DNA from: Klebsiella phage KP34
DNA length: 43,809 nt
Reading direction: 5' to 3' (one strand)
Sequence record: NC_013649.2
The stretch's first letter is position 1. Every line of letters begins with the position of its first letter. This document shows positions 9,822-26,660 of this stretch, one piece after another. Position numbers and translations under genes: made by a program. The notes beneath the pieces are model-generated. The model saw only the letters and a list, made by a program, of their open reading frames with translations, ran no database searches and was not told the DNA's origin.

Positions 9822-10282
9822 ATTGGGGAGACTACCTCTACTACGACGACGGTAAGTTATACTGGATTCGTCACAGTAAAAACGGGGCCTGTCAGCCGGG
9901 GAAAGAGGCAGGGTATATGCAACCCACGGACGGACGTTGGGTGATTGGTTTAAATGGGAGGACGCACAAACGTGCGCGCATCGTCTGGGAAATGTTTCAC
10001 GGGCCAATTCCAAAGGGCACAGTCATAGATCACATCAACCGTGTGAGGGAGGACGATAGGATTGAAAACTTGAGGGCGGTGGATGTGCCCACTAACAATA
10101 AGAATAAGACCGTAGACCGGCGCAATCAATCCGGTGTTTCGGGGGTTCGCTGGGACCCCATCCGGGGTAAGTGGGAGGCTAATATAGGCCGCACACGATT
10201 AGGCCGCTTCACCTCCAAAGCGGAGGCCATTTCCGCCAGGTTAAACGCAGAGCAGTCGCATGGGTATCTAAGGAGCAGTTAA
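9818..10282 (+). CDS. HNH homing endonuclease with an AP2-like DNA-binding domain (about 154 aa)
   Basis: ...VIDHINRVREDDRIENLR...N (HNH core) followed by SGVSGVRWDPIRGKWEANIGR...RLGRFTSKAEAISAR (AP2-type fold, common in phage homing endonucleases). The track start 9812 is a TTG; ATG 9818 is preferred. Its stop overlaps the DNA polymerase start. Confidence 0.8.
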   Translation: MNWGDYLYYDDGKLYWIRHSKNGACQPGKEAGYMQPTDGRWVIGLNGRTHKRARIVWEMFHGPIPKGTVIDHINRVREDDRIENLRAVDVPTNNKNKTVDRRNQSGVSGVRWDPIRGKWEANIGRTRLGRFTSKAEAISARLNAEQSHGYLRSS

Positions 10283-12642
10283 TGTACCAAATAATGCACA
10301 TAGATTTAGAGGTCGAGAATTATGAGTACTACGGGAACGTGGCCTCTCCTTACTGCCCGGACAACTACGTAGTAGAGAGTGCGTACCGTATTGATACTGT
10401 GGACGACGCCGGTCAAGTGCACGTAGGTGACGTTTTCAGTGTACGGTTTAACAGTAAAGAGGAGTTCCTAGCGGACGTAAACGGCGCTCACCAGTGGTTA
10501 GCTATACCCGAACATTGCACCATGCTGGTGATACACAACATGAGCTTTGAGGTTTCTTGGTTCCTGTCGTACCAACGGCAGCACTTTGAGGCGTTCTTAA
10601 AGCGTGGTGGCCGGGTGTACTGTACCCAGCATGGTGAGTACATCGCAACTGACTTCCAGAGCATGTACCCGTCCTTGGATGAGACTGCCCCTAAGTATGG
10701 GGGAACACATAAAGTTGACGGAGTAAAGATTCTGTGGGAGCAGGGGCGGAGAACGTCGGAGATTGACGCCACCCTGCTGCACGACTACCTTGTAAACGGC
10801 GACGTGCCAAATACAGCACTATGCTTCTACGGGCAGTGCGCTATCTTCTCAGAACGTGGACAGATGCAGTATGTCTACGAGAGGATGGACGCGGCCCTAG
10901 CCTGGAGTTTTTGTCAGTGGTTCGGTCTGTTCGTTAATATGCCAATTGCACGCAAGAACCAGGAGGAGCAGGAGCAGCGCATCCGTGAGATTAAGCAGGA
11001 GCTGCAGCAGTACATCCCGAAGAACCTACCGGAGACGCTGGATTTTAACTTCGGCTCGGACTTCCATATGTCTGCACTGGTGTACGGTGGGCCTATCAAG
11101 TATCGCAAGAAGGTTCCCTACGACCCTCCGCAGTACGTAAAGTACGATGCCTACTTAGCAGACGTCAATGGAACGTTGCAGTATATTGACGTGTCCGACT
11201 GGCAGCCAGAATGGACGTACCCGCGGACACTGTATAAGTCCGGCAAGAACAAGGGACTACCCAAAGTATTCCGCCTTGATACCGAGGAGAAGAAGCTCAA
11301 GTGGGAGGACGACCTTTACTTCTGCCCGGGTCTAGTGAACATCCAGGAGCTGCCGGAAGTTATCCGGGAGAAGTACGCAGAGCGCGGAGAGTTCCGGCAG
11401 GCGCGCGCACTGCAGGACGGCACTCCTGTGTACAGCACCAGCACCGACGCAATGGAGGCGCTGGCTCGACAAGGTTTCGAGTTCTGCCGATTGGTAAACG
11501 AGCTAGGTGCTCTAGAGAAAGACACAGGGACCTATTACCTGAGAACGGAGTACAACGAAGATGGGTCAGTTAAAAAGACCTCGGGCATGCTTCAATACGT
11601 CATACCTCAGAACCCTGATGGTTCAGGTATTATCCACCACCGTCTTAACACCTGTGCCACTGTCACCGGGCGACTGTCGGGCTCTAACCCGAACCTCCAG
11701 AATCTACCGCGCGATGGGACGAGCCGGGTTAAACAGATGTTCACCTCTCGTTTCGGAGAATCTGGTCGTATCACTGAGGTTGACTACTCTGCCCTCGAAG
11801 TGGTCATGGGGTGTGTTCATACGGGAGACCGTAAACTACTAAGCCTCCTGCAAGCTGGGACGGACATGCACTGTTACCGCCTAGCGTTCAAGGAGGGCAA
11901 AACCTACGAAGAGATGTACGACCTCTGCCACAACGCCGATGGGCCGGACTATAAGTACTGGAAGCAGCAGCGTACGGACATTAAGCCTCCGAGCTTTGCT
12001 GCACAGTACGGGGCTACGGCTAAAGGGATTGCGTTTGCTACGGGTTGTACAGTGGAGTATGCGCAGTCGTTCCTGGATAACGAGGCGAAGCTGTTCCCAG
12101 ACACTATCGGATTCCGCGCTGTTGTCAAGGAAGAGGTAGAGCGTACCGGAGCAGAGGGGCGTCTGTACCGCGAGCAAGCTGATGATGGCAGTTACCGAGT
12201 CTATCGAATTGGGACGTGGACCAGCCCGGCGGGTGCCCGCTACAGCTTCCGTCAGAAGGAGCAGTGGAAAGAGGTTGTGCCTGAGCAGCGTAAGCAGAAG
12301 GTCATGGACTACAAGGAAACCGAGATGGCTAACTACTGGTGCCAAGGGGAAGCATTCTTTCTGATGGCAGTAGCGGCTGGTATGGTTCTTCGTGCACTCC
12401 TGGCCCGTGACTGGTTCGACAATCAGGTGTGCCTGATTACGAACGTACACGATGCATTGTATCTGGACAGCGCCAACCCGGAGGTTGGAAGAGAGGCGAG
12501 CCTGTTGGTCAAGCAGTGCATGGAGGATGCGCCTAAGCGTATTCACCAGCTCTGGCCTAACTACGGTATCATTGGTGAGGTGCCCTTCCCGGCGGAAGCT
12601 GAAATGGGTACGAGCATGTACAGTAAGGAGAAGGTAGAATGA
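10282..12642 (+). CDS. DNA polymerase, family A (T7 gp5-like) with a 3'-5' exonuclease domain, 786 aa
   Basis: Exo motif LVIHNMSFEVSWF. Motif A DYSALEVV. Motif B RTDIKPPSFAAQYGATAKG. Motif C NVHDALYLD. SD AAGGAG upstream. Confidence 0.95.
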   Translation: MYQIMHIDLEVENYEYYGNVASPYCPDNYVVESAYRIDTVDDAGQVHVGDVFSVRFNSKEEFLADVNGAHQWLAIPEHCTMLVIHNMSFEVSWFLSYQRQHFEAFLKRGGRVYCTQHGEYIATDFQSMYPSLDETAPKYGGTHKVDGVKILWEQGRRTSEIDATLLHDYLVNGDVPNTALCFYGQCAIFSERGQMQYVYERMDAALAWSFCQWFGLFVNMPIARKNQEEQEQRIREIKQELQQYIPKNLPETLDFNFGSDFHMSALVYGGPIKYRKKVPYDPPQYVKYDAYLADVNGTLQYIDVSDWQPEWTYPRTLYKSGKNKGLPKVFRLDTEEKKLKWEDDLYFCPGLVNIQELPEVIREKYAERGEFRQARALQDGTPVYSTSTDAMEALARQGFEFCRLVNELGALEKDTGTYYLRTEYNEDGSVKKTSGMLQYVIPQNPDGSGIIHHRLNTCATVTGRLSGSNPNLQNLPRDGTSRVKQMFTSRFGESGRITEVDYSALEVVMGCVHTGDRKLLSLLQAGTDMHCYRLAFKEGKTYEEMYDLCHNADGPDYKYWKQQRTDIKPPSFAAQYGATAKGIAFATGCTVEYAQSFLDNEAKLFPDTIGFRAVVKEEVERTGAEGRLYREQADDGSYRVYRIGTWTSPAGARYSFRQKEQWKEVVPEQRKQKVMDYKETEMANYWCQGEAFFLMAVAAGMVLRALLARDWFDNQVCLITNVHDALYLDSANPEVGREASLLVKQCMEDAPKRIHQLWPNYGIIGEVPFPAEAEMGTSMYSKEKVE

Positions 12643-12860
12643 GTATAAAGTCTGGCAGTGTTGTGGAGTTGATGGACCTGGGACCTGAGCCGATAGACCC
12701 GAGGTATGCAGCATACTTCACCCCAGGTACAAGGCACACGGTTCTATTCTTCGACCCGGTTACTGGTGAGATAGAACTAAGTTACCCTGGACTGTTAGTA
12801 AGTAGACCGGGGGACGGTGTCACCTTCTTCCCGGGGGAATATAGGCTTATAGAAGAGTAG
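12639..12860 (+). CDS. Hypothetical protein (73 aa)
   Basis: ORF with ATGA overlap with the polymerase stop. Confidence 0.55.
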   Translation: MSIKSGSVVELMDLGPEPIDPRYAAYFTPGTRHTVLFFDPVTGEIELSYPGLLVSRPGDGVTFFPGEYRLIEE

Positions 12861-12917
12861 TGATAGGTGGACCCTTGGGTGGTGTAGGGGGTTAGGGTAA
12901 CACATAAATACGCTGGG

Positions 12918-12952
12918 GTCAACTAAATAATTAAATAAAATTATTTGTTGAC
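12918..12952. repeat. AT-rich near-perfect palindrome GTCAAC-T-AAATAATT-AAATAA-AATTATTT-GTTGAC within a 140-bp AT-rich island; candidate origin or operator
   Basis: Seen directly. The only strongly AT-rich non-coding stretch in the genome (about 12880-13020). It lies between the polymerase module and the next genes. Confidence 0.5.
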
Positions 12953-13020
12953 TCTGGCTTGATTCTGTGATTCCACGAGAATTAATGTGATACGAGTAGG
13001 AACAACATAAGAGAGTTACG

Positions 13021-13299
13021 ATGAGTAAAACATTCCTTATTGATGTAGCCTTTAGCACTAAGTTAGTAGTCTCAAAGGAGGAGCTAGGTGGTATGCGCGG
13101 ATGGATTAAATCGCGCAAACTACCAGAGCACTTTCAAAATTACCTGGACTCGCTAGATGATGACGCGGCACTGCAGGCGTTTATAAAATACGCCACCAGG
13201 GAGTGGTTCAAGGGGGAGCTGGAGCGCCAGAGGAAACAGGATGGGGGTGCCACTACGTACTCCCCGGTAAAAGTAACGGTACGGGAGAAACAACACTAA
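13021..13299 (+). CDS. Hypothetical protein (92 aa)
   Basis: ORF after the AT-rich island with a weak SD (AAGAGAG). Confidence 0.55.
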   Translation: MSKTFLIDVAFSTKLVVSKEELGGMRGWIKSRKLPEHFQNYLDSLDDDAALQAFIKYATREWFKGELERQRKQDGGATTYSPVKVTVREKQH

Positions 13300-14336
13300 T
13301 GGCGCGCGTAAGTCTAATCAAACTATTCACCAAAGAGCAGCACCAGGCAATCCTGGGCCAGTACTTGGATAACTCTACTGCTGCCAAAGCGTACAACGTA
13401 CTACTGGCTTACGGGGAAATACCACAGTACAAGGAGAGTGCTGAATACTACGGCACCCTTGGTACCGCGGAATGCGTGGTGTCCCGCCAGCTTGTGCGCT
13501 ACTGGCGCAGCATCTTCATGGATAACAAGGGCAGCAAGTCAAAGGCTAACAATGCCCTGATGCAAGCCCGAAAACTAATTCAACCTTCCCCAACGGATGA
13601 TATTGGGGATACCTTTGTACCTGAAACATGTCGGCGTGTGCTTGTTATTGGGGACTTGCACGAGCCGTACACACATCCGGACGCGTATGACTTTTTACGC
13701 ACTGTGCGGGATGAGTACTGCCCAGACATTGTGGTGCAGATAGGCGACGAGACGGATGGGCACGCTATTAGCTTTCACGATAGCAGTCCGGAGTTGGACA
13801 GCGCTGGGGTGGAATTAGAGAAGGCCAAGCTCGGCCTGGAGAAACTGCACGACCTGTTTCCTAACATGCTCCTGTGTGATTCTAATCACGGCTCCCTTGT
13901 CTACCGCCGGGCCAAGGCTCACGGACTCCCTGTACAGTTCATTAAGAAGTACCGGGACATCCTGTTCCCGGAGCACGGGGCACCGGGGTGGAGTTGGGGT
14001 GATGCTTGGGATTTGAATACTCCGCTGGGTACTGTGCGATTCCAACATCAAGTATCTGGGGACCTGCTGCTCAACGCAGCCCATGAACGTAAGTCCATGG
14101 TGATTGGACACTTCCATGGGAAGTTAGATATACAGTATGCCGCTAGCAGCACTGCCCTGTACTTTGGTGCGCACTGCGGTTGTTTAATCGACAACAAGAG
14201 TCTGGCATTTGCTTACGGCAAGTTGTCAAGAAGCAAGCCGATTCTAGGGTGTATGGTGATTACAGATGGATGCCCGCAAATCATCCCCATGCTATTGGAC
14301 GACACCGGCCGGTGGTGTTCTAGAGTACAACCCTGA
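13299..14336 (+). CDS. Calcineurin-like metallophosphoesterase (possibly an Mre11/SbcD-type nuclease or phosphatase), 345 aa
   Basis: Motifs GDLHEP (GDxH), GDETDGH (GDxxDxxH), SNHGS (GNHE-like) and IGHFHG. I chose the ATG at 13299 (TAATG overlap with the upstream stop) rather than the track start at 13203. Confidence 0.8.
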   Translation: MARVSLIKLFTKEQHQAILGQYLDNSTAAKAYNVLLAYGEIPQYKESAEYYGTLGTAECVVSRQLVRYWRSIFMDNKGSKSKANNALMQARKLIQPSPTDDIGDTFVPETCRRVLVIGDLHEPYTHPDAYDFLRTVRDEYCPDIVVQIGDETDGHAISFHDSSPELDSAGVELEKAKLGLEKLHDLFPNMLLCDSNHGSLVYRRAKAHGLPVQFIKKYRDILFPEHGAPGWSWGDAWDLNTPLGTVRFQHQVSGDLLLNAAHERKSMVIGHFHGKLDIQYAASSTALYFGAHCGCLIDNKSLAFAYGKLSRSKPILGCMVITDGCPQIIPMLLDDTGRWCSRVQP

Positions 14337-14775
14337 TACCGGAGAGTTTATATGGGTTAAAGTAGTTAGTAACCGTGCCAAGTTGGGAAGCACCGCTGGG
14401 CACGTAAGACCTGATGGGTACTTGGTCTTGCCGTGTGGGACCCGTGCTAATGTTGCAGCATGTAAGCTGTTGGGCCTGGATGTCCCTGATGGATATGTGG
14501 TGGACCACATTAACAGGGACACCCTGGACAACCGCGCCTGCAATCTTAGGGTTGTATCAAAGAAGGTTAACGCACACAACACAGGGCTCCGGGCCACCAA
14601 CAAAACAGGCGCGCGCGGGGTTTCTTGGGACTCTAGCAGGGGCAAGTACCGGGCTGCTCTTATGGTGGACGGGAGGCAGTATAGTAGGCGCTTCGACAGC
14701 TTAGAGGCTGCCTCAGAGTGGTACCACAGTGTGGCCGAGAGACACGGGGTTAGGCAGTACCAGCAACCCGCGTAG
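14266..14775 (+). CDS. HNH homing endonuclease with AP2-like domain (169 aa)
   Basis: VVDHINRDTLDNRACNLRVV...N...H (HNH) then GARGVSWDSSRGKYRAALMVDGRQYSRRFDSLEAASEWYH (AP2-like). A paralogue of 9818..10282. Overlaps the 3' end of the phosphoesterase gene by 71 nt. Confidence 0.75.
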   Translation: MDARKSSPCYWTTPAGGVLEYNPDTGEFIWVKVVSNRAKLGSTAGHVRPDGYLVLPCGTRANVAACKLLGLDVPDGYVVDHINRDTLDNRACNLRVVSKKVNAHNTGLRATNKTGARGVSWDSSRGKYRAALMVDGRQYSRRFDSLEAASEWYHSVAERHGVRQYQQPA

Positions 14776-14984: not shown

Positions 14985-15035
14985 GCCCTGCATCTGCACG
15001 TAAATATCATTTAAACTAAACGAGGACGTAATTAT

Positions 15036-15860
15036 ATGACTATGAATGCACTGGACACTCTGAACTCCCTGGTAGCTGCTGCGATTGAAACGCAAGATGT
15101 TGATATGACCGAGACCGCACAGGGCGGCGCGTATGAGGATGTACTGCTTCCGAAGGGTGAGTACTACGGCTACTTCACTGAGTACGTGGAAATCGGTAAG
15201 CGCCTGCCGACTAAGGGCGGTAAGCCTACAGGTAAGCCTGCAGTGGCTAACGTACGCATCGGCATTGTAGTGTTCGGCCCTAACGGCGAAGTGAAGCGTA
15301 TCCGCCCGTACCCGATGGCTATCAGTAACTTCGAGCGAGCAGGCTTCAAGAAGTTCTTCGACAAGCTCAACTACGACAATAGCATTAAGCATGCAGCGCA
15401 GCGTCTGGGCCAGGCCTTCACCTTCCCGATTGATGAGCACACCAGCGCCGCGGGCAAGAAGTCTAACATCGTGGACCTGTCCGGTATCCGCCCGATTCCG
15501 AAGTTCGACCCGAACACCGGCGAGCCTATCAAGATGCCTGCCCTGGATGCTTCCGAGATTAAGCTGTTCCTGTGGAACAACCCAACAAAAGAGACCTGGG
15601 ATAGCCTGCACATCGATGGCACCTTCGACGACGGTAAGAGCAAGAACTGGATTCAGGAGGACATGTATAAAGCTGTAGACTTCCCGGGCAGTGCTCTGGA
15701 CATTATGCTGAACGCTGGTTCAGTTCCGAGTCCGGCAGCTATGCAGGCACCAGCTGCTCCGGCTGCTCCTGCGACCCCTACTGCTCCGGCAGCACCGGCA
15801 GCACCGGTTGCGCCAGTGGCCCCTGTAGCTCCAGCAGCGCCTGCTGCACCTAAAGCCTAA
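15036..15860 (+). CDS. Abundant middle protein of unknown function (274 aa) with a C-terminal Pro/Ala repeat tail (PAAPAAPATPTAPAAPAAPVAPVAPVAPAAPAAPKA); speculative ssDNA-binding or replication-associated protein
   Basis: Long ORF with capsid-like codon usage. Followed by a strong stem-loop terminator. Low-complexity (PAAPA)n tail. Confidence 0.8.
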   Translation: MTMNALDTLNSLVAAAIETQDVDMTETAQGGAYEDVLLPKGEYYGYFTEYVEIGKRLPTKGGKPTGKPAVANVRIGIVVFGPNGEVKRIRPYPMAISNFERAGFKKFFDKLNYDNSIKHAAQRLGQAFTFPIDEHTSAAGKKSNIVDLSGIRPIPKFDPNTGEPIKMPALDASEIKLFLWNNPTKETWDSLHIDGTFDDGKSKNWIQEDMYKAVDFPGSALDIMLNAGSVPSPAAMQAPAAPAAPATPTAPAAPAAPVAPVAPVAPAAPAAPKA

Positions 15861-19722: not shown

Positions 19723-22191
19723 ATGATTAGCGCCCTAAGTACGGTAGTAGTACCAGAGGAAGCACTGGTGAAACGCCAGCTGGAGCTTGAAGAGACCTAT
19801 AAGATTCGCGGAATCGAGCGGGCACGTAAGCTGATTACGGACGCATTGCAGAACGGCGGGATTATGAACCTGCCTATGACGCAGCGTATGCTCACTTCGG
19901 CATATGAAGTGGCTGCTGCCGCGATCGATGAGATGCGAAATGTCAAAGCCCCTGGCATTGGTGGGAAGTATCGCCGGTTCCTGCGCTTAATCCCCTTGGA
20001 TGTCCTGACCACCCTGAGCCTGTGCACAATGTTTGAGGCGTTCAGCGTCGCCCCCGGCGAGTCCGCCAGTCGCCGCCAGACTGCGCAGGCGGTAATGTCC
20101 GCACTGGGCCGGAACGTGCAGTCGGAACTGCTGTCTTTGCAGCTGCGTAACGTTGCCCCGGCGTACATGGACCGGGTGTATGAGTATCTCACAGAGCGCC
20201 GTACAAAGTCACCTACGCACATCCTGCGTACGCTCCGTGCCAGTGCCGAGAACGTGCACTACGGGCACGAGCCTTGGACCAATGCCCAGAACATCTCCGT
20301 AGGGCGTCTGCTGTGTGCCGCAGTATTCGAGACGGGTCTGTTCCAGTGGAAGACGGGCAGCGGGAACCTGAGCATGCTCTACCCCGCAGACGACGTTATG
20401 GAAGCATTTCAGCAGCTAGTGGAATCTGCTGACACTGTGACGATGAAGCCTCCTATGCTGGTGCCGCCGGTGCAGCACACTACGATGTGGGACGGCGGGT
20501 ACCTCACCCCAATCGATAACCGCGGTACGTACCATAACTCGCACATCGACCGCACCAGACTGCGTGAAGTAGCGGAAGCATTTAAGTCTGCGGACGGCAT
20601 CAAGAAGGCGCTTAATAAGGCACAGGAAACTCCGTACCGTATTAATAAGCGCATACTGGAACTGGTGCAAGAAGCACGGGCCCTAGGTATCGGAGTGGGT
20701 ATGCCCCGCTCAGTGCCGGAGCCTAAACCGGAGTGGTACTTGGATGGCGTACCAAAAGAGAACTACACAGAGGAAGAACTGGACCGCTTCGGTGAGTGGA
20801 AGACGCGTATGTCTCTGTGGTACAGTGCTGACCGTAAGCGTGTGTCGCAACTGCGCAGCCTTCTGACTACGTTAGAAATGGCAGAGGAATTCAAAGATGA
20901 GAAAGCTCTTTACTTCCCGACTTGTGTGGACTGGCGCTACCGCCTGTACTTCAAGTCCTCACTGCATCCCCAAGGTTCTGATTTGCAGAAAGCCCTTCTT
21001 GAGTTTGGCAGAGGAAAACCTCTGGGTGATCGCGGCTTATTCTGGCTCAAGGTGCATGTCGCCACATGCTTTGGTTATGACAAGACCTTATTCGAAGACC
21101 GCGCAGCTTGGGTTGATGCGAACTTTGCAGAGATTGAGCAGCTTACAGTTTCACCGTTTGATTGCCCTGCTTTCACCTCCGCGGACAGCCCTTGGTGCTT
21201 ATTGGCCGCCGCTATCGACCTGGTTAATGCTGTGCGTTCTGGATGCCCAGAAGAGCATATTAGCCGAATCCCAGTTGCTATGGACGCTACAAACTCTGGT
21301 GGACAGCACCTCTCAGCGCTCCTGAGAGACCCTGTAGGCGGTCGTCTGACGAACCTGTACTGGGAAGGTAACGACAAGAAAGCGGACCTGTACATGGATG
21401 TGAAGCGCCGTACGGACGAGAAGGTGATACTGGACCTGGACAAGGAGGACTTCATTATCCAGAGCACGTACTGGAGAGAGAACGAAATCACCCGCAGCAT
21501 GACCAAGCGCCCCAGTATGACCTACTTCTACAGCGCCACGGTGCGTAGCTGCAGCGACTACATCTTTGAAGGCGCTTGCGCTGAGGGATACGAGGGTACC
21601 GATACTAACAGTCTGTGGAACCTGTCGTGTTACCTGGCACCGCGTATGCGTGCCGCTATCGAGGAGGCAAACCCCGCTGCTGCGGCAGTTATGGGGTACT
21701 TGCAGAACCTAGCTAGACGTGTACCGGCAAGCCAGCACCTGCAGTGGTATACGCCGCTGGGTGGGCTCGTAATGAACCGCTACACGCAGCGTGAAGAAGT
21801 GCGCGTACGTATTGACTGCATGAACCTATCGGCGGTACTGGTACACAACCGGGACTTCAAGACCTGCAACAAGCGTAAGGCAGCCTCCGGGATTGCCCCG
21901 AACTTTGTGCATAGTCTGGACAGTACGCACTTGATGATGGTGCTCTGCGCTGCGGAGGGTCTGGATATTGTGCCGATTCACGACTCACTGGCTACTCACG
22001 CAGCCGACGTTGATGATATGCACCGACACATCCGCGAACAGTTTGTGCGCCTCTACGAGGAGAATGACCTGCTTGGCGACATTACTCGCGCGGCGGCAGC
22101 AGCCGGGGCAGACTTGACGGACCTGGACATGCCTGAGGTGGGTACTTTGGACATCCGTCAAGTGCTAGAATCCCCGTTCTTCTTCTGCTAA
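19723..22191 (+). CDS. Single-subunit DNA-dependent RNA polymerase (T7 RNAP family), 822 aa
   Basis: Size and collinear similarity to T7 gene 1. Motif C region IVPIHDSLATHAADVDDM and C-terminal ...FFFC-like end. SD AAGGAG upstream. Its position after the replication genes is phiKMV-like. Confidence 0.95.
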   Translation: MISALSTVVVPEEALVKRQLELEETYKIRGIERARKLITDALQNGGIMNLPMTQRMLTSAYEVAAAAIDEMRNVKAPGIGGKYRRFLRLIPLDVLTTLSLCTMFEAFSVAPGESASRRQTAQAVMSALGRNVQSELLSLQLRNVAPAYMDRVYEYLTERRTKSPTHILRTLRASAENVHYGHEPWTNAQNISVGRLLCAAVFETGLFQWKTGSGNLSMLYPADDVMEAFQQLVESADTVTMKPPMLVPPVQHTTMWDGGYLTPIDNRGTYHNSHIDRTRLREVAEAFKSADGIKKALNKAQETPYRINKRILELVQEARALGIGVGMPRSVPEPKPEWYLDGVPKENYTEEELDRFGEWKTRMSLWYSADRKRVSQLRSLLTTLEMAEEFKDEKALYFPTCVDWRYRLYFKSSLHPQGSDLQKALLEFGRGKPLGDRGLFWLKVHVATCFGYDKTLFEDRAAWVDANFAEIEQLTVSPFDCPAFTSADSPWCLLAAAIDLVNAVRSGCPEEHISRIPVAMDATNSGGQHLSALLRDPVGGRLTNLYWEGNDKKADLYMDVKRRTDEKVILDLDKEDFIIQSTYWRENEITRSMTKRPSMTYFYSATVRSCSDYIFEGACAEGYEGTDTNSLWNLSCYLAPRMRAAIEEANPAAAAVMGYLQNLARRVPASQHLQWYTPLGGLVMNRYTQREEVRVRIDCMNLSAVLVHNRDFKTCNKRKAASGIAPNFVHSLDSTHLMMVLCAAEGLDIVPIHDSLATHAADVDDMHRHIREQFVRLYEENDLLGDITRAAAAAGADLTDLDMPEVGTLDIRQVLESPFFFC

Positions 22192-22198
22192 AAATTTA

Positions 22199-22215
22199 AT
22201 GTTACAGGAGTAGGA
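22199..22215 (+). promoter_or_regulatory. Candidate phage-RNAP promoter P2 (TAATGTTACAGGAGTAGGA), immediately upstream of the ATG at 22216
   Basis: Identical core to P1 and P3. Lies in the 24-nt gap after the RNAP gene. The AGGAG inside the motif doubles as the SD for the next gene. Confidence 0.55.
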
Positions 22216-22656
22216 ATGAAGTTAAAACACACTAGTAAAACTTCCGACTACACTCTCAGGGTTCTGTATAAGTCTGACGACATTACAGACGCAGTGAAGC
22301 AACTGCATGAACTGGGCCACGGCATTAGTCGGGGCCTAGCTCCAGAGCAGCACTACTGGAGAGTACTGGGCAGCATACTGGATAAACAGTATATACTAGG
22401 AGTCTATGACTCCCAAGGCGACTTAGTCGGTGCTGTCAGCTACTACCCAGAAGCTGTAGAGGACTGTCATTACGTAGAGCCTGTGCTGTATACAGACTTC
22501 TTCGTATTGAAGCCAGGTAACAGTAAGGCGGTACTTGTGATTATGCAGGGCCTTCGCGCAATAGCTAAGAGTATGCGGGCTGGGCGTATCGCCATTAGCC
22601 GAGGTGCATCGGATAACACATACAATACAACTTATCATTTAGTGAGGTCAGAATGA
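22216..22656 (+). CDS. Hypothetical protein (146 aa), first gene after the RNAP; weakly GNAT-like, unverified
   Basis: ORF directly downstream of promoter motif P2. No firm motif. Confidence 0.65.
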   Translation: MKLKHTSKTSDYTLRVLYKSDDITDAVKQLHELGHGISRGLAPEQHYWRVLGSILDKQYILGVYDSQGDLVGAVSYYPEAVEDCHYVEPVLYTDFFVLKPGNSKAVLVIMQGLRAIAKSMRAGRIAISRGASDNTYNTTYHLVRSE

Positions 22657-24535: not shown

Positions 24536-25378
24536 ATGGATAACGTAGAAAACGGTCAGAACGTAGAAACTACACAGGTAGAGAACCAAGGTGGCCCTAA
24601 GATTCCGGGCCTAGATGCTCCCCTTAACGCCCCGAACAATCAAGGCGTGCAGGATGCACAGACCCCTACCCAGCAGCAACAGGGCAAAGATTCCCCTGAC
24701 CCTGCTAAGATTCCTCTGGATATCGAAGCCCTAAAAGCGGCCCTGGATAAGGGTGGCGACAGCGCTAAGGAGCAGCCCCAGGAGCTGGCTAAGACAGGCA
24801 ACCCGACGATTGACGCCGGTGTAGCTATGTTGCAGAAAGTCTCTGGGTTAACTGACTCTGATATGGTGCGGGCACTTGGTAAGGCCCTGGAGTACCAGGA
24901 CCCTAACCTAATCGATACGGCCTTCATTAGGGAACGTTTCGGAGAGCACGCTGCTTATGCAGAGTTGCTGGCTAAAGCGTACCTGGAAGACCAGGTTGGT
25001 CAAGCCACCAAAGCAGTACAGGAAGCTTACGATATCGTGGGCGGTAAGGAGAACTGGGAGGTAGCAGCGCAGCTGTTTAATTCCAAGGCCCCTGAACCTC
25101 TTCGTAACGCGGCTCGTGTACTCGCTAACTCGGGTGAGCTCAAGCAGGCCGCTGAGTTGGTAGCGGGCTTCTGCCGGGATATGGGTCTTATCAAGACACA
25201 GAACCCAATGGTACGAGGCGTAGCCAGCAACAATGCACTGTCTGCTGCGGAATTCCGCGCAGAATATACCAAACTCCGTCAGGAAGCGGGCAACCGTAGC
25301 TTGGCGTCTCCACAGTTCAGTCAACGTTATAACGATTTGCTCGCACGCCGTGAAGCCGGTAAGCGCGTGGGTCTTTAA
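24536..25378 (+). CDS. Capsid assembly (scaffolding) protein, T7 gp9-like (280 aa)
   Basis: Acidic, Ala/Gln-rich, low-complexity protein between portal and capsid genes. Confidence 0.7.
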   Translation: MDNVENGQNVETTQVENQGGPKIPGLDAPLNAPNNQGVQDAQTPTQQQQGKDSPDPAKIPLDIEALKAALDKGGDSAKEQPQELAKTGNPTIDAGVAMLQKVSGLTDSDMVRALGKALEYQDPNLIDTAFIRERFGEHAAYAELLAKAYLEDQVGQATKAVQEAYDIVGGKENWEVAAQLFNSKAPEPLRNAARVLANSGELKQAAELVAGFCRDMGLIKTQNPMVRGVASNNALSAAEFRAEYTKLRQEAGNRSLASPQFSQRYNDLLARREAGKRVGL

Positions 25379-25403
25379 TCTCATTTAAAAGGAAAAGTAA
25401 GAT

Positions 25404-26423
25404 ATGGCAGATACTATCTATAAAAGCGCCCTGACCCGAGCCCACTGGGGCGGCGCGGCGTCTGACGTCGATATTCACCTGGAAGTCTACCAAAACGAGG
25501 TTGACACCCGCTTCCAGTACCAGGCTCTGTTCCTGGGTCTTTCCAGCCAGCGCTCTATCAGCGGTTCCAACACCTACCGTATTGACCGCCTGAACACCTC
25601 CTCGGTGAAGGGTCGTCGCTCTGGTGAGGCGCTGGATAGCACCCCGGTCCGTAACGATAAGATGATTATCGTGGTGGATACGGTGCTGTATATCCGTAAC
25701 CCGATTGACTATCAGGATGACTGGACAGGTCCGGACTTCCTGACTGAGATGGGTCAGAACAACGGCTCTGAGTTCGCGGAGACCTTCGACCAGGCGCACC
25801 TGATTCAGCTCATCAAGGGCCGCTCCTGGGTTGCTCCGGCGCACTTGAAGCCAGCGTTCAACGATGGTATCGAGGTAGGCGCAGCTATCCTGGTTCCAGG
25901 TGCTACCCCTTCCACGCAGCTGACCCAGGCTGAGATGGAGGCGAACGCCATGAACATCAACCTAGCCCACAAGGCTGGTATTGATGAACTCATCAAGCGC
26001 AAGGTGCCGCTCATGGATATGGTTACACTGGTGGATGTCGATACCTATTCGCGTCTGCTGGAGCATCCGAAGCTGTTCGACCGTGACTTCGGTGACAGCA
26101 ACATGGACGGTTATAAGCAGCGCCGCGCAGTGGTGATGAACGGTATCCCGGTTGTCGAGTGCACCGAGTTCCCGACCGTTGCTGGTACGCACCCGCTGGG
26201 CTCTGCTTACACCGTCACCTCTGACGATGCGCTGTGCCGTATGGTGACTTTCAGCAAGTCCAAGACCCTGGTGACTGTCGAAGCTAAGCCGTTCACCTCC
26301 CGTATCTGGGATGATGAGCGCGAGTTCAGCAACGTGCTGGACTGCTACGCGATGTACAACATCGGCCTGCGTCGTCCGGACACTGCTGCAGTGACCAAGT
26401 TCACCTTCACCACCAAGTCCTAA
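25404..26423 (+). CDS. Major capsid protein, T7 gp10-like (339 aa)
   Basis: Size, position, optimal codon usage, and a strong terminator downstream (T7 Tphi analogue). Confidence 0.9.
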   Translation: MADTIYKSALTRAHWGGAASDVDIHLEVYQNEVDTRFQYQALFLGLSSQRSISGSNTYRIDRLNTSSVKGRRSGEALDSTPVRNDKMIIVVDTVLYIRNPIDYQDDWTGPDFLTEMGQNNGSEFAETFDQAHLIQLIKGRSWVAPAHLKPAFNDGIEVGAAILVPGATPSTQLTQAEMEANAMNINLAHKAGIDELIKRKVPLMDMVTLVDVDTYSRLLEHPKLFDRDFGDSNMDGYKQRRAVVMNGIPVVECTEFPTVAGTHPLGSAYTVTSDDALCRMVTFSKSKTLVTVEAKPFTSRIWDDEREFSNVLDCYAMYNIGLRRPDTAAVTKFTFTTKS

Positions 26424-26622: not shown

Positions 26623-26660
26623 GCCCCTGGTGCCTTCGGGTGCCAGGGGCTTTTTTTTTT
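26623..26660 (+). terminator. Strong rho-independent terminator (12-bp stem, UUCG loop, T10 tract)
   Basis: GCCCCTGGTGCC-ttcg-GGTGCCAGGGGC followed by tttttttttt, directly after the capsid operon. This is the position of T7 Tphi. Confidence 0.85.

Follow-up and report, generated by a model that had tools for sequence, protein, structure and literature searches.

A conserved AT-rich intergenic island of Klebsiella phage KP34 with a hairpin and a candidate middle promoter for the phage RNA polymerase

Klebsiella phage KP34 (NC_013649.2; genus Drulisvirus, subfamily Slopekvirinae, family Autographiviridae) carries all its genes on one strand, and the 160-bp gap at 12861-13020, which extends from the stop codon of a 73-amino-acid (aa) open reading frame (ORF) up to the ATG at 13021, is a genuine control region with strong conservation. 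The window analyzed here is the whole 43,809-bp record, which is the complete linear genome, as indicated by the exact 216-bp direct terminal repeats at both ends (1-216 and 43594-43809). The most likely mechanism, to which we assign roughly an even chance, is that a hairpin marking a transcript end is followed by an unlisted middle promoter for the KP34 RNA polymerase. This fourth promoter-like site is unlisted, and the island itself is unannotated in almost all of the ~240 deposited Drulisvirus genomes.

Under the proposed mechanism, the island would serve as transcriptional punctuation, separating the block of replication genes (primase, helicase, DNA polymerase) from the following one, which consists of the Gp5.5-like protein, the phosphoesterase, nucleases and the RNA polymerase gene at 19723. 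Plus-strand read-through transcripts can form an AU-rich hairpin of ~20 bp (12912-12958) with a U-rich tail behind it, and this hairpin would terminate, pause, or process and stabilise the upstream transcript, acting as a leaky terminator or as an RNase III-type site. The KP34 RNA polymerase would initiate at G12999 from a deviant, probably weaker “middle” promoter and re-drive the downstream genes, including its own, resulting in a putative positive feedback. The AT-richness of the island would then be a by-product of the AU-rich stem, the AT-rich upstream half of the promoter and the gene start, rather than a melting element. The features of the island are as follows (nt, nucleotides):

12858-12866, plus strand: three in-frame stop codons, TAG TGA TAG, which terminate the 73-aa ORF
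12867-12900, plus strand: conserved G-rich block GGTGGACCCTTGGGTGGTGTAGGGGGTTAGGGTA, directly after the stop codons, persisting upstream of HNH insertions (see below)
12912-12958, plus strand: hairpin of ~20 bp, in which 12912-12923 and 12925-12932 pair with 12939-12958, with the bulge T12924 and the loop 12933-12938
12947-12973, plus strand: near-invariant block GTTGACTCTGGCTTGATTCTGTGATTC, comprising the hairpin right arm plus a U-rich tail, in which 8 of the 15 nt past the stem are T
12974-12980, plus strand: variable 7-nt spacer between two invariant blocks (CACGAGA, CCCGAGA, ACAGAGA, CCAGCAA, CCGTGTA and others)
12983-13001, plus strand: promoter-like element TAATGTGATACGAGTA (the 16-mer at 12983-12998) followed by GGA, with the predicted start of the KP34 single-subunit RNA polymerase at G12999
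13009-13015, plus strand: ribosome-binding site AAGAGAG for the gene at 13021, inside a conserved 22-nt leader

A promoter-like element related to the published KP34 promoters

The promoter-like element begins 24 nt past the hairpin and had been overlooked in an earlier note on this DNA, which proposed that the island was a candidate replication origin or regulatory operator. Of its 16 positions, 13 agree with TAATGTTACAGGAGTA, the validated strong promoter of KP34. When both strands (87.6 kb) were searched for sites with no more than three mismatches to TAATGTTACAGGAGTA, four were found against 0.25 expected, the other three being the published promoters S1/S2, T(A/G)ATGTTACAGGAGTA, at 475, 22197 and 33721 (Lu et al. 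2019, PMC6834552). All four sites have GGA at +1 to +3, and the 8-mer GAGTAGGA occurs genome-wide, on both strands, only at these sites (486, 12994, 22208 and 33732). The unique 13/16 match, the GGA and the only copies of GAGTAGGA support the promoter interpretation. The island element shares with S1/S2 the 16-nt frame, the GGA, the plus strand, the AT-rich surroundings and the position directly before a gene, and differs from them by three substitutions and by its location in the middle-gene region, upstream of the polymerase gene.

Conservation was assessed in an unbiased sample of 34 Drulisvirus and 2 Koutsourovirus loci from IMG/VR, retrieved via the neighbouring 73-aa protein; 57 extra IMG/VR contigs were retrieved via an 18-mer. 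The 16-mer is exact in 33 of the 34 Drulisvirus loci, and the single exception, an A to G change at position 2, is the same difference that distinguishes the validated S1 from S2. Located on the plus strand, intergenic and conserved, TAATGTGATACGAGTA is placed as expected of a KP34-type promoter. The invariant stretch, from about -17 to +17, starts right after the variable 7-nt spacer, a pattern of conservation that, judged from the alignments, fits the footprint of a T7-type promoter.

Within the genus, covariation of the island element with the late promoters was tested and none was found; the variation of the late promoters at -15 and -13 is polymorphic within single genomes and is therefore uninformative in this respect. 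Phages SU552A and KpV48 carry TGAAGTTACCGGAGTA after the RNA polymerase gene, compared to TAATGTTACCGGAGTA in the structural region of the same genome. Position -7 (A or C) switches jointly in both late promoters of one genome in these two phages, and this switch may follow the division into two specificity-loop groups made by Eriksson et al. 2015 (PMC4411677). The promoter features annotated in KpV475 and KpV48 cover differing, non-equivalent segments of the island, look like software predictions, and were discarded. A scan of IMG/VR with TAATGTNANNNGAGTAGGA yielded mostly chance matches outside Drulisvirus, and one prophage-like family has TAATGTTACACGAGTAGGA. Five IMG/VR contigs (26-52 kb) with homologous flanks, longer than Drulisvirus genomes and possibly prophages, carry TAATGTTACACGAGTAGGAAC, a hybrid of the KP34 late promoter and the island element, which may be a chance match or a related promoter.

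A maintained hairpin upstream of the promoter-like element

The palindrome GTCAACTAAATAATTAAATAAAATTATTTGTTGAC, described in the earlier note, is indeed present at 12918-12952, with arms of 6 and 8 bp split by one bulged T (12924) and a 6-nt loop. These 35 bp are the core of the longer hairpin at 12912-12958, in which the stem is extended via G·U pairs to a total of 20 pairs in KP34, three of the outer ones being G·U. The palindrome folds far beyond chance: as single-stranded DNA, 12910-12960 yields -11.1 kcal/mol, compared to -1.1 +/- 1.1 kcal/mol for shuffled sequences (z = -9.1; none of the 200 shuffles was as good).

All 28 distinct hairpin variants from relatives retain the fold, at -16 to -25 kcal/mol. 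Across these variants, standard pairs occupy 93% of the pair cells, compared to 31-55% when the partner is slid by 1-3 columns, and 67 G·U cells are found versus 11 A·C cells. Of the two RNA strands, the plus strand gives the more stable fold in each of the 28 (mean of -20.6 kcal/mol, compared to -14.0 kcal/mol for the minus strand). The right arm is invariant, and the left arm has five variants, differing at positions 6, 7 and 9; for example, GTCAAC-T is changed to GTCAAA-T, GTCAAG-C or GTCAAG-T, and A is changed to G opposite U. These substitutions either move the bulge, with a register shift from C6/T7 to A6/T7, G6/C7 or G6/T7, or make G·U pairs. The G·U excess, the register shifts of the bulge and the consistently higher stability of the plus-strand RNA argue for a strand-specific, maintained hairpin, and the overall pattern points to a sense-strand hairpin and not to a symmetric duplex site; because the variant sequences are mutually related, this evidence is supportive and does not amount to proof.

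In the predicted fold, the plus-strand RNA forms 20 pairs with one bulge, which corresponds to the substrate size of RNase III (about two helical turns, at least 20 bp of double-stranded RNA). The terminator-like features are a stem of about -20 kcal/mol and the tail TTGATTCT, with 5 T in 8 nt, interrupted; the Koutsourovirus counterpart lacks a U-tail. The hairpin resembles the canonical intrinsic terminator of KP34 at 26623-26660 (Eriksson et al. 2015, PMC4411677) in that each forms a stem-loop where a gene block ends, with T-rich sequence after it. The difference is that the stem at 26623-26660 is GC-rich, spans 12 bp and precedes 10 consecutive T, whereas the island hairpin has an AU-rich upper stem and the interrupted tail TTGATTCTGTGATT.

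Two further structures in the KP34 fold, a second small hairpin at 12960-12984 and a long-range pairing of GTAACACAT (12897-12905) with ATGTGATAC (12985-12993), were discarded as, by eye, neither is kept in relatives. A hairpin is also contained in the repeat that Eriksson et al. 2015 (PMC4411677) named a “putative phage promoter”, at 1487-1538 and 2508-2559, from which no transcription by the KP34 RNA polymerase occurs (Lu et al. 2019, PMC6834552); this repeat may be another transcript-level hairpin element.

Conservation of the island and the mosaic junction

The conservation profile, calculated as the fraction identical to KP34 over 28 loci, is as follows:

12861-12911: 0.90
12959-12973: 0.993
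12974-12980 (the variable spacer): 0.68
12981-13015: 0.97
13021-13299 (the downstream gene): 0.03
surrounding 20 kb: 0.73

Among the Drulisvirus-type matches in GenBank, 231 of the 244 records have at least 80% of the island, with identities of 89-99% across the matches, and of the 252 records that match the 73-aa protein, about half fall short of 60% identity. The regulatory role suggested in the earlier note is borne out, and the island is under strong selection, being retained in nearly all records next to a far less conserved protein.

The near-invariant block GTTGACTCTGGCTTGATTCTGTGATTC is single-copy in the KP34 genome and includes TTGACT, TTGATT and TGTGAT, along with two 11-nt imperfect direct repeats, TTGAcTCTGgc and TTGAtTCTGtg. 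TTGACT (12948-12953) and TTGATT (12959-12964) are located as previously described; the two TGTGAT words exist as well, but start at 12966 and 12986, with a spacing of 20 nt, and not at 12967 and 12988, 21 nt apart. The repeat unit TTGAYTCTGK was set aside: it has 16 matches versus 7 expected, and the surplus is scattered through coding DNA on both strands and was therefore judged uninformative. A three-tetrad G-quadruplex in the G-rich block GGTGGACCCTTGGGTGGTGTAGGGGGTTAGGGTA is not conserved among relatives. An Rfam search of 12600-13300 with E-values up to 10 returned only noise (weak miRNA and snoRNA matches far below gathering scores).

Immediately downstream of the shared ribosome-binding site lies a mosaic junction (13016-13021) of the kind that is usual at T7-group promoters: AAGAGAGG stands before differing start codons across relatives, at least 4 different genes follow the same leader, and many GenBank megablast alignments end at window position 13015. 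The Gp5.5-like gene is accessory, being present in KP34 and a minority of the relatives, and most relatives go directly into the phosphoesterase gene; besides these two, two further alternative gene starts were found at the junction.

Natural loss of the left arm through HNH insertions

In 3 of the 34 unbiased Drulisvirus loci (~9%), an HNH endonuclease gene lies within the island, and the same arrangement was detected in two more IMG/VR contigs and in the GenBank phage KMI3; in phage KMI6, an annotated HNH gene splits the island match. The HNH gene takes the place of the hairpin's left arm and AT-rich centre (the equivalent of 12901-12946), and the phages with the insertion retain GTTGACTCTGGCTTGATTCTGTGATTC and everything to the right of it. 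Accordingly, the palindrome is dispensable, whereas the right half of the island is not. In the HNH variants, a run of A (TAAAAAG) closely precedes GTTGAC. The right arm that they retain was not found to take part in a substitute hairpin, and their folds are mutually inconsistent.

The Koutsourovirus counterpart

The collinear sister genus Koutsourovirus, represented by Enterobacter phage phiKDA1 and two IMG/VR contigs, has a corresponding gap (11602-11676 in phiKDA1), flanked by its homologue of the 73-aa ORF on one side and by the phosphoesterase gene on the other. Common to both genera is the order of TTGAC(A/T), a hairpin, a phage-promoter-like element, a leader with ...ACGA(A/G)TAGGA(A)CAACA... 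and a ribosome-binding site. In Koutsourovirus, TTGACA occupies the place equivalent to block 12947-12973 and is followed by a 9-10 bp GC-rich hairpin and then by TAGAAGTATCACGAATAGGACAAC, the 3' part of which, ACGA(A/G)TAGGA(A)CAACA, is homologous to the KP34 leader. Unlike its KP34 counterpart, this hairpin has neither an AT-rich centre nor a U-rich tail, and it abuts the promoter element; it is too short for RNase III, so that the two hairpins need not share that function.

The Koutsourovirus promoter element follows its own SP6-like consensus: TAGAAGTATCACGAATAGGA, at the homologous position, fits the motif TAGAnnnnnCACGTATAGAA of the genus, which is found twice after its RNA polymerase gene. 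There are three matches to TAGAnnnnnCACGTATAGAA in phiKDA1 versus 0.01 expected, an expectation that serves only as a guide because the pattern was derived from the same three sites. Thus, each genus has its own presumed phage-polymerase promoter at this place, and the hairpin-then-promoter order is common to both genera, whereas the AT-richness is not. A hairpin just upstream of a promoter-like element in Koutsourovirus lends support to the proposed mechanism, although sequence and composition differ. In phiKDA1, the SP6-like motif, TAGAnnnnnCACG(T/A)ATAG(A/G)A, is located at 11639-11658, 20740-20759 and 21062-21081, in each case intergenic and on the plus strand; the record does not annotate it, and it is probably the promoter of the Koutsourovirus RNA polymerase.

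Arguments against the proposed mechanism and alternative explanations

Several observations weigh against a hairpin followed by a promoter for the phage enzyme. Three strong promoters and a weak one are on record for the KP34 RNA polymerase, and that list includes none in the island, a region outside the assay (Lu et al. 2019, PMC6834552). The mismatches to the strong promoter (-10 G, -8 T and -6 C) fall on positions that are constant throughout the late promoters of the relatives, and the concerted A/C change of the late promoters at -7 (SU552A and KpV48 type) is not followed by the island element; that these deviant positions are themselves strictly invariant suggests a further or a different constraint. 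Within the DNA-metabolism block of LUZ19, a phiKMV-like phage, cappable-seq detected no promoter; the literature searched contained no transcript mapping for Drulisvirus, and no paper found in this search included the island 16-mer. The hairpin lacks a canonical U-run, a terminator scan of the gap gave no call, and no terminator was called at this hairpin by Eriksson et al. 2015 (PMC4411677). Finally, block 12947-12973 outlives the loss of the left arm and falls outside the footprint of a T7-type promoter, so that the combination of hairpin and promoter explains this block only in part.

The best-surviving alternative, which we nevertheless regard as doubtful, is a host sigma-70 promoter with an UP element, consisting of the -35 hexamer TTGATT (12959-12964), an 18-nt spacer and the -10 hexamer TAATGT (12983-12988), with the start near 12995 and with AAAATTATTTG (12936-12946, the AT-rich right half of the palindrome) as the distal UP subsite. 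Such a promoter would open the downstream genes to early transcription, among them the gene of the phage RNA polymerase at 19.7 kb, which the host polymerase has to reach somehow, and could overlap or coexist with a phage promoter. This arrangement would turn the two most conserved pieces of the island into the -35 and -10 elements, with the variable block within the spacer; TAATGT has the key TAnnnT positions. The consensus of the UP distal subsite is AAAWWTWTTTT; AAAATTATTTG, which would lie at about -57 to -47, fits it at 10 of 11 positions, and the HNH variants retain the A-run upstream of GTTGAC. However, the core scores only 7.9 bits, with 69 genome sites equal or better, compared to 14.2 for the published early host promoter, and the 18-nt spacer is suboptimal. 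A consensus scan of the gap found no sigma-70 promoter; near-consensus hexamers 16-18 bp apart are not present, TTGATT-18-TAATGT being the best pair, although an UP-like element might make up for the weak core. Furthermore, a host promoter leaves unexplained both the invariance of GATACGAGTAGGAACAAC downstream of the -10 hexamer and the unique family resemblance to the phage promoters, and in Koutsourovirus TTGACA is not followed by a usable -10 at a suitable distance.

A T7-style origin, in which phage-polymerase transcription from 12983-12998 would open or prime the DNA beside an AT-rich element such that primase and helicase could load, appears unlikely. The GTC motifs at the outer ends of both arms would be divergent priming sites, and GTC is invariant at the left arm. 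The T7 primary origin consists of the promoters phi1.1A and phi1.1B plus an AT-rich region; in origins of this type, the AT-rich region is downstream of the promoter(s) and is the site of the RNA-to-DNA transition and of primase loading. The island resembles this signature of a phage promoter with AT-rich DNA: it is the lowest-GC DNA of the genome, adjoins a phage-promoter-like element, is strongly conserved and lies beside the replication genes, and the 80 nt past the predicted start are moderately AT-rich (GC 0.36). More broadly, it shares with the T7 class II promoters, RNase III hairpins and primary origin the combination of a putative processing or terminating hairpin, a non-consensus phage promoter and AT-rich DNA in an intergenic module at an operon boundary next to replication genes. 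For T7, these features are reportedly described in the work of Dunn and Studier of 1983 and that of the Richardson laboratory. The differences are that there is no sequence homology, that the main AT-rich element of KP34 (-81 to -47) is upstream of the promoter, in contrast to its downstream location in T7, and that the KP34 polymerase gene is located downstream and not upstream.

Other observations also speak against an origin. The left arm and centre are deleted in ~9% of the relatives, collinear Koutsourovirus has a GC-rich hairpin instead, and the wobble pairing, limited to the plus strand, suggests a role in RNA as opposed to duplex melting. The AT-rich palindrome is, therefore, missing in collinear relatives of both kinds; the earlier note itself had named absence of the island in such relatives as speaking against its easily melted origin, and that proposal is not supported. 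T7, for its part, can do without its primary origin. Searches of plasmids and of representative genomes of bacteria and archaea gave no homologue of the element. The cumulative GC skew lacks an inflection at the island, but it rises monotonically and all genes are on one strand, so that skew is uninformative on the origin. No origin mapping for Drulisvirus was found in the literature searched, and there is no positive evidence for the island as a replication origin. The stronger version, in which the island would be the primary replication origin of Drulisvirus, formed by a dedicated, deliberately non-consensus phage-polymerase promoter and an AT-rich unwinding element on the T7 pattern, strikes us as quite improbable. 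If true, it would define the first origin for the phiKMV/KP34 branch of Autographiviridae, and the strict invariance of the deviant promoter would reflect a role in priming and not in mRNA synthesis.

An operator or cruciform recognized at the DNA level by a dimeric phage or host protein is very improbable: the palindrome is highly significant and lies ~30 bp upstream of the promoter-like element, and the two TGTGAT words are 20 bp apart, but the half-sites are not conserved symmetrically, as the left arm varies and is dispensable in the natural HNH variants whereas the right arm is invariant, the imperfections are of the G·U (G·T) type on the plus strand only, and no repressor-like gene was identified, so that the operator proposed in the earlier note finds little footing. 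A pho-box reading of CTGGCTTGATTCTGTGAT was rejected, with 4 genome sites versus 2.6 expected, which is not above chance.

Implications of a possible middle promoter for the phage polymerase

The KP34 RNA polymerase is an enzyme in use for in vitro transcription. If the island indeed contains a promoter for this enzyme, the strictly conserved variant with changes at -10, -8 and -6 would reveal which promoter positions the enzyme tolerates and could serve as a weak or regulated promoter of natural origin. Located upstream of the gene for the polymerase itself, such a promoter would also constitute an autocatalytic loop, which is unreported for phiKMV-like phages. Finally, the island is a recombination junction and a target for insertion of homing endonucleases, which is relevant for the engineering of these therapeutic phages.

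Base composition and genomic neighbourhood

The gap region is the GC minimum of the genome at all window sizes tested, with GC of 0.14, 0.24, 0.30, 0.325 and 0.36 at 35, 50, 100, 160 and 200 nt, respectively (z from -4.2 to -5.1). The earlier description of the gap as the only strongly AT-rich stretch in a GC-rich genome holds with regard to the minimum but not to uniqueness: among 50-nt windows, 25376-25425 equals the island at GC 0.24, and 15001-15050 and 22191-22240 come near it. With an overall GC content of 54%, the genome is moderately GC-rich at most.

The genes relevant to the context of the island are as follows:

10282-12642, plus strand: DNA polymerase ORF, 786 aa
12639-12860, plus strand: 73-aa ORF, PHROG 6862, located 3' of the DNA polymerase ORF
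13021-13299, plus strand: Gp5.5-like H-NS inhibitor gene, PHROG 1452 (E = 1.5e-17), the first gene after the gap
13299-14336, plus strand: metallo-phosphoesterase gene, PHROG 221 (E = 2.6e-107)
19723-22191, plus strand: RNA polymerase ORF, 822 aa, with coordinates identical to those of Lu et al. 2019 (PMC6834552)

KP34 itself also encodes an HNH endonuclease, in an ORF at 14266-14775 (PHROG 99, E = 1.5e-43) that overlaps the end of the phosphoesterase gene region.

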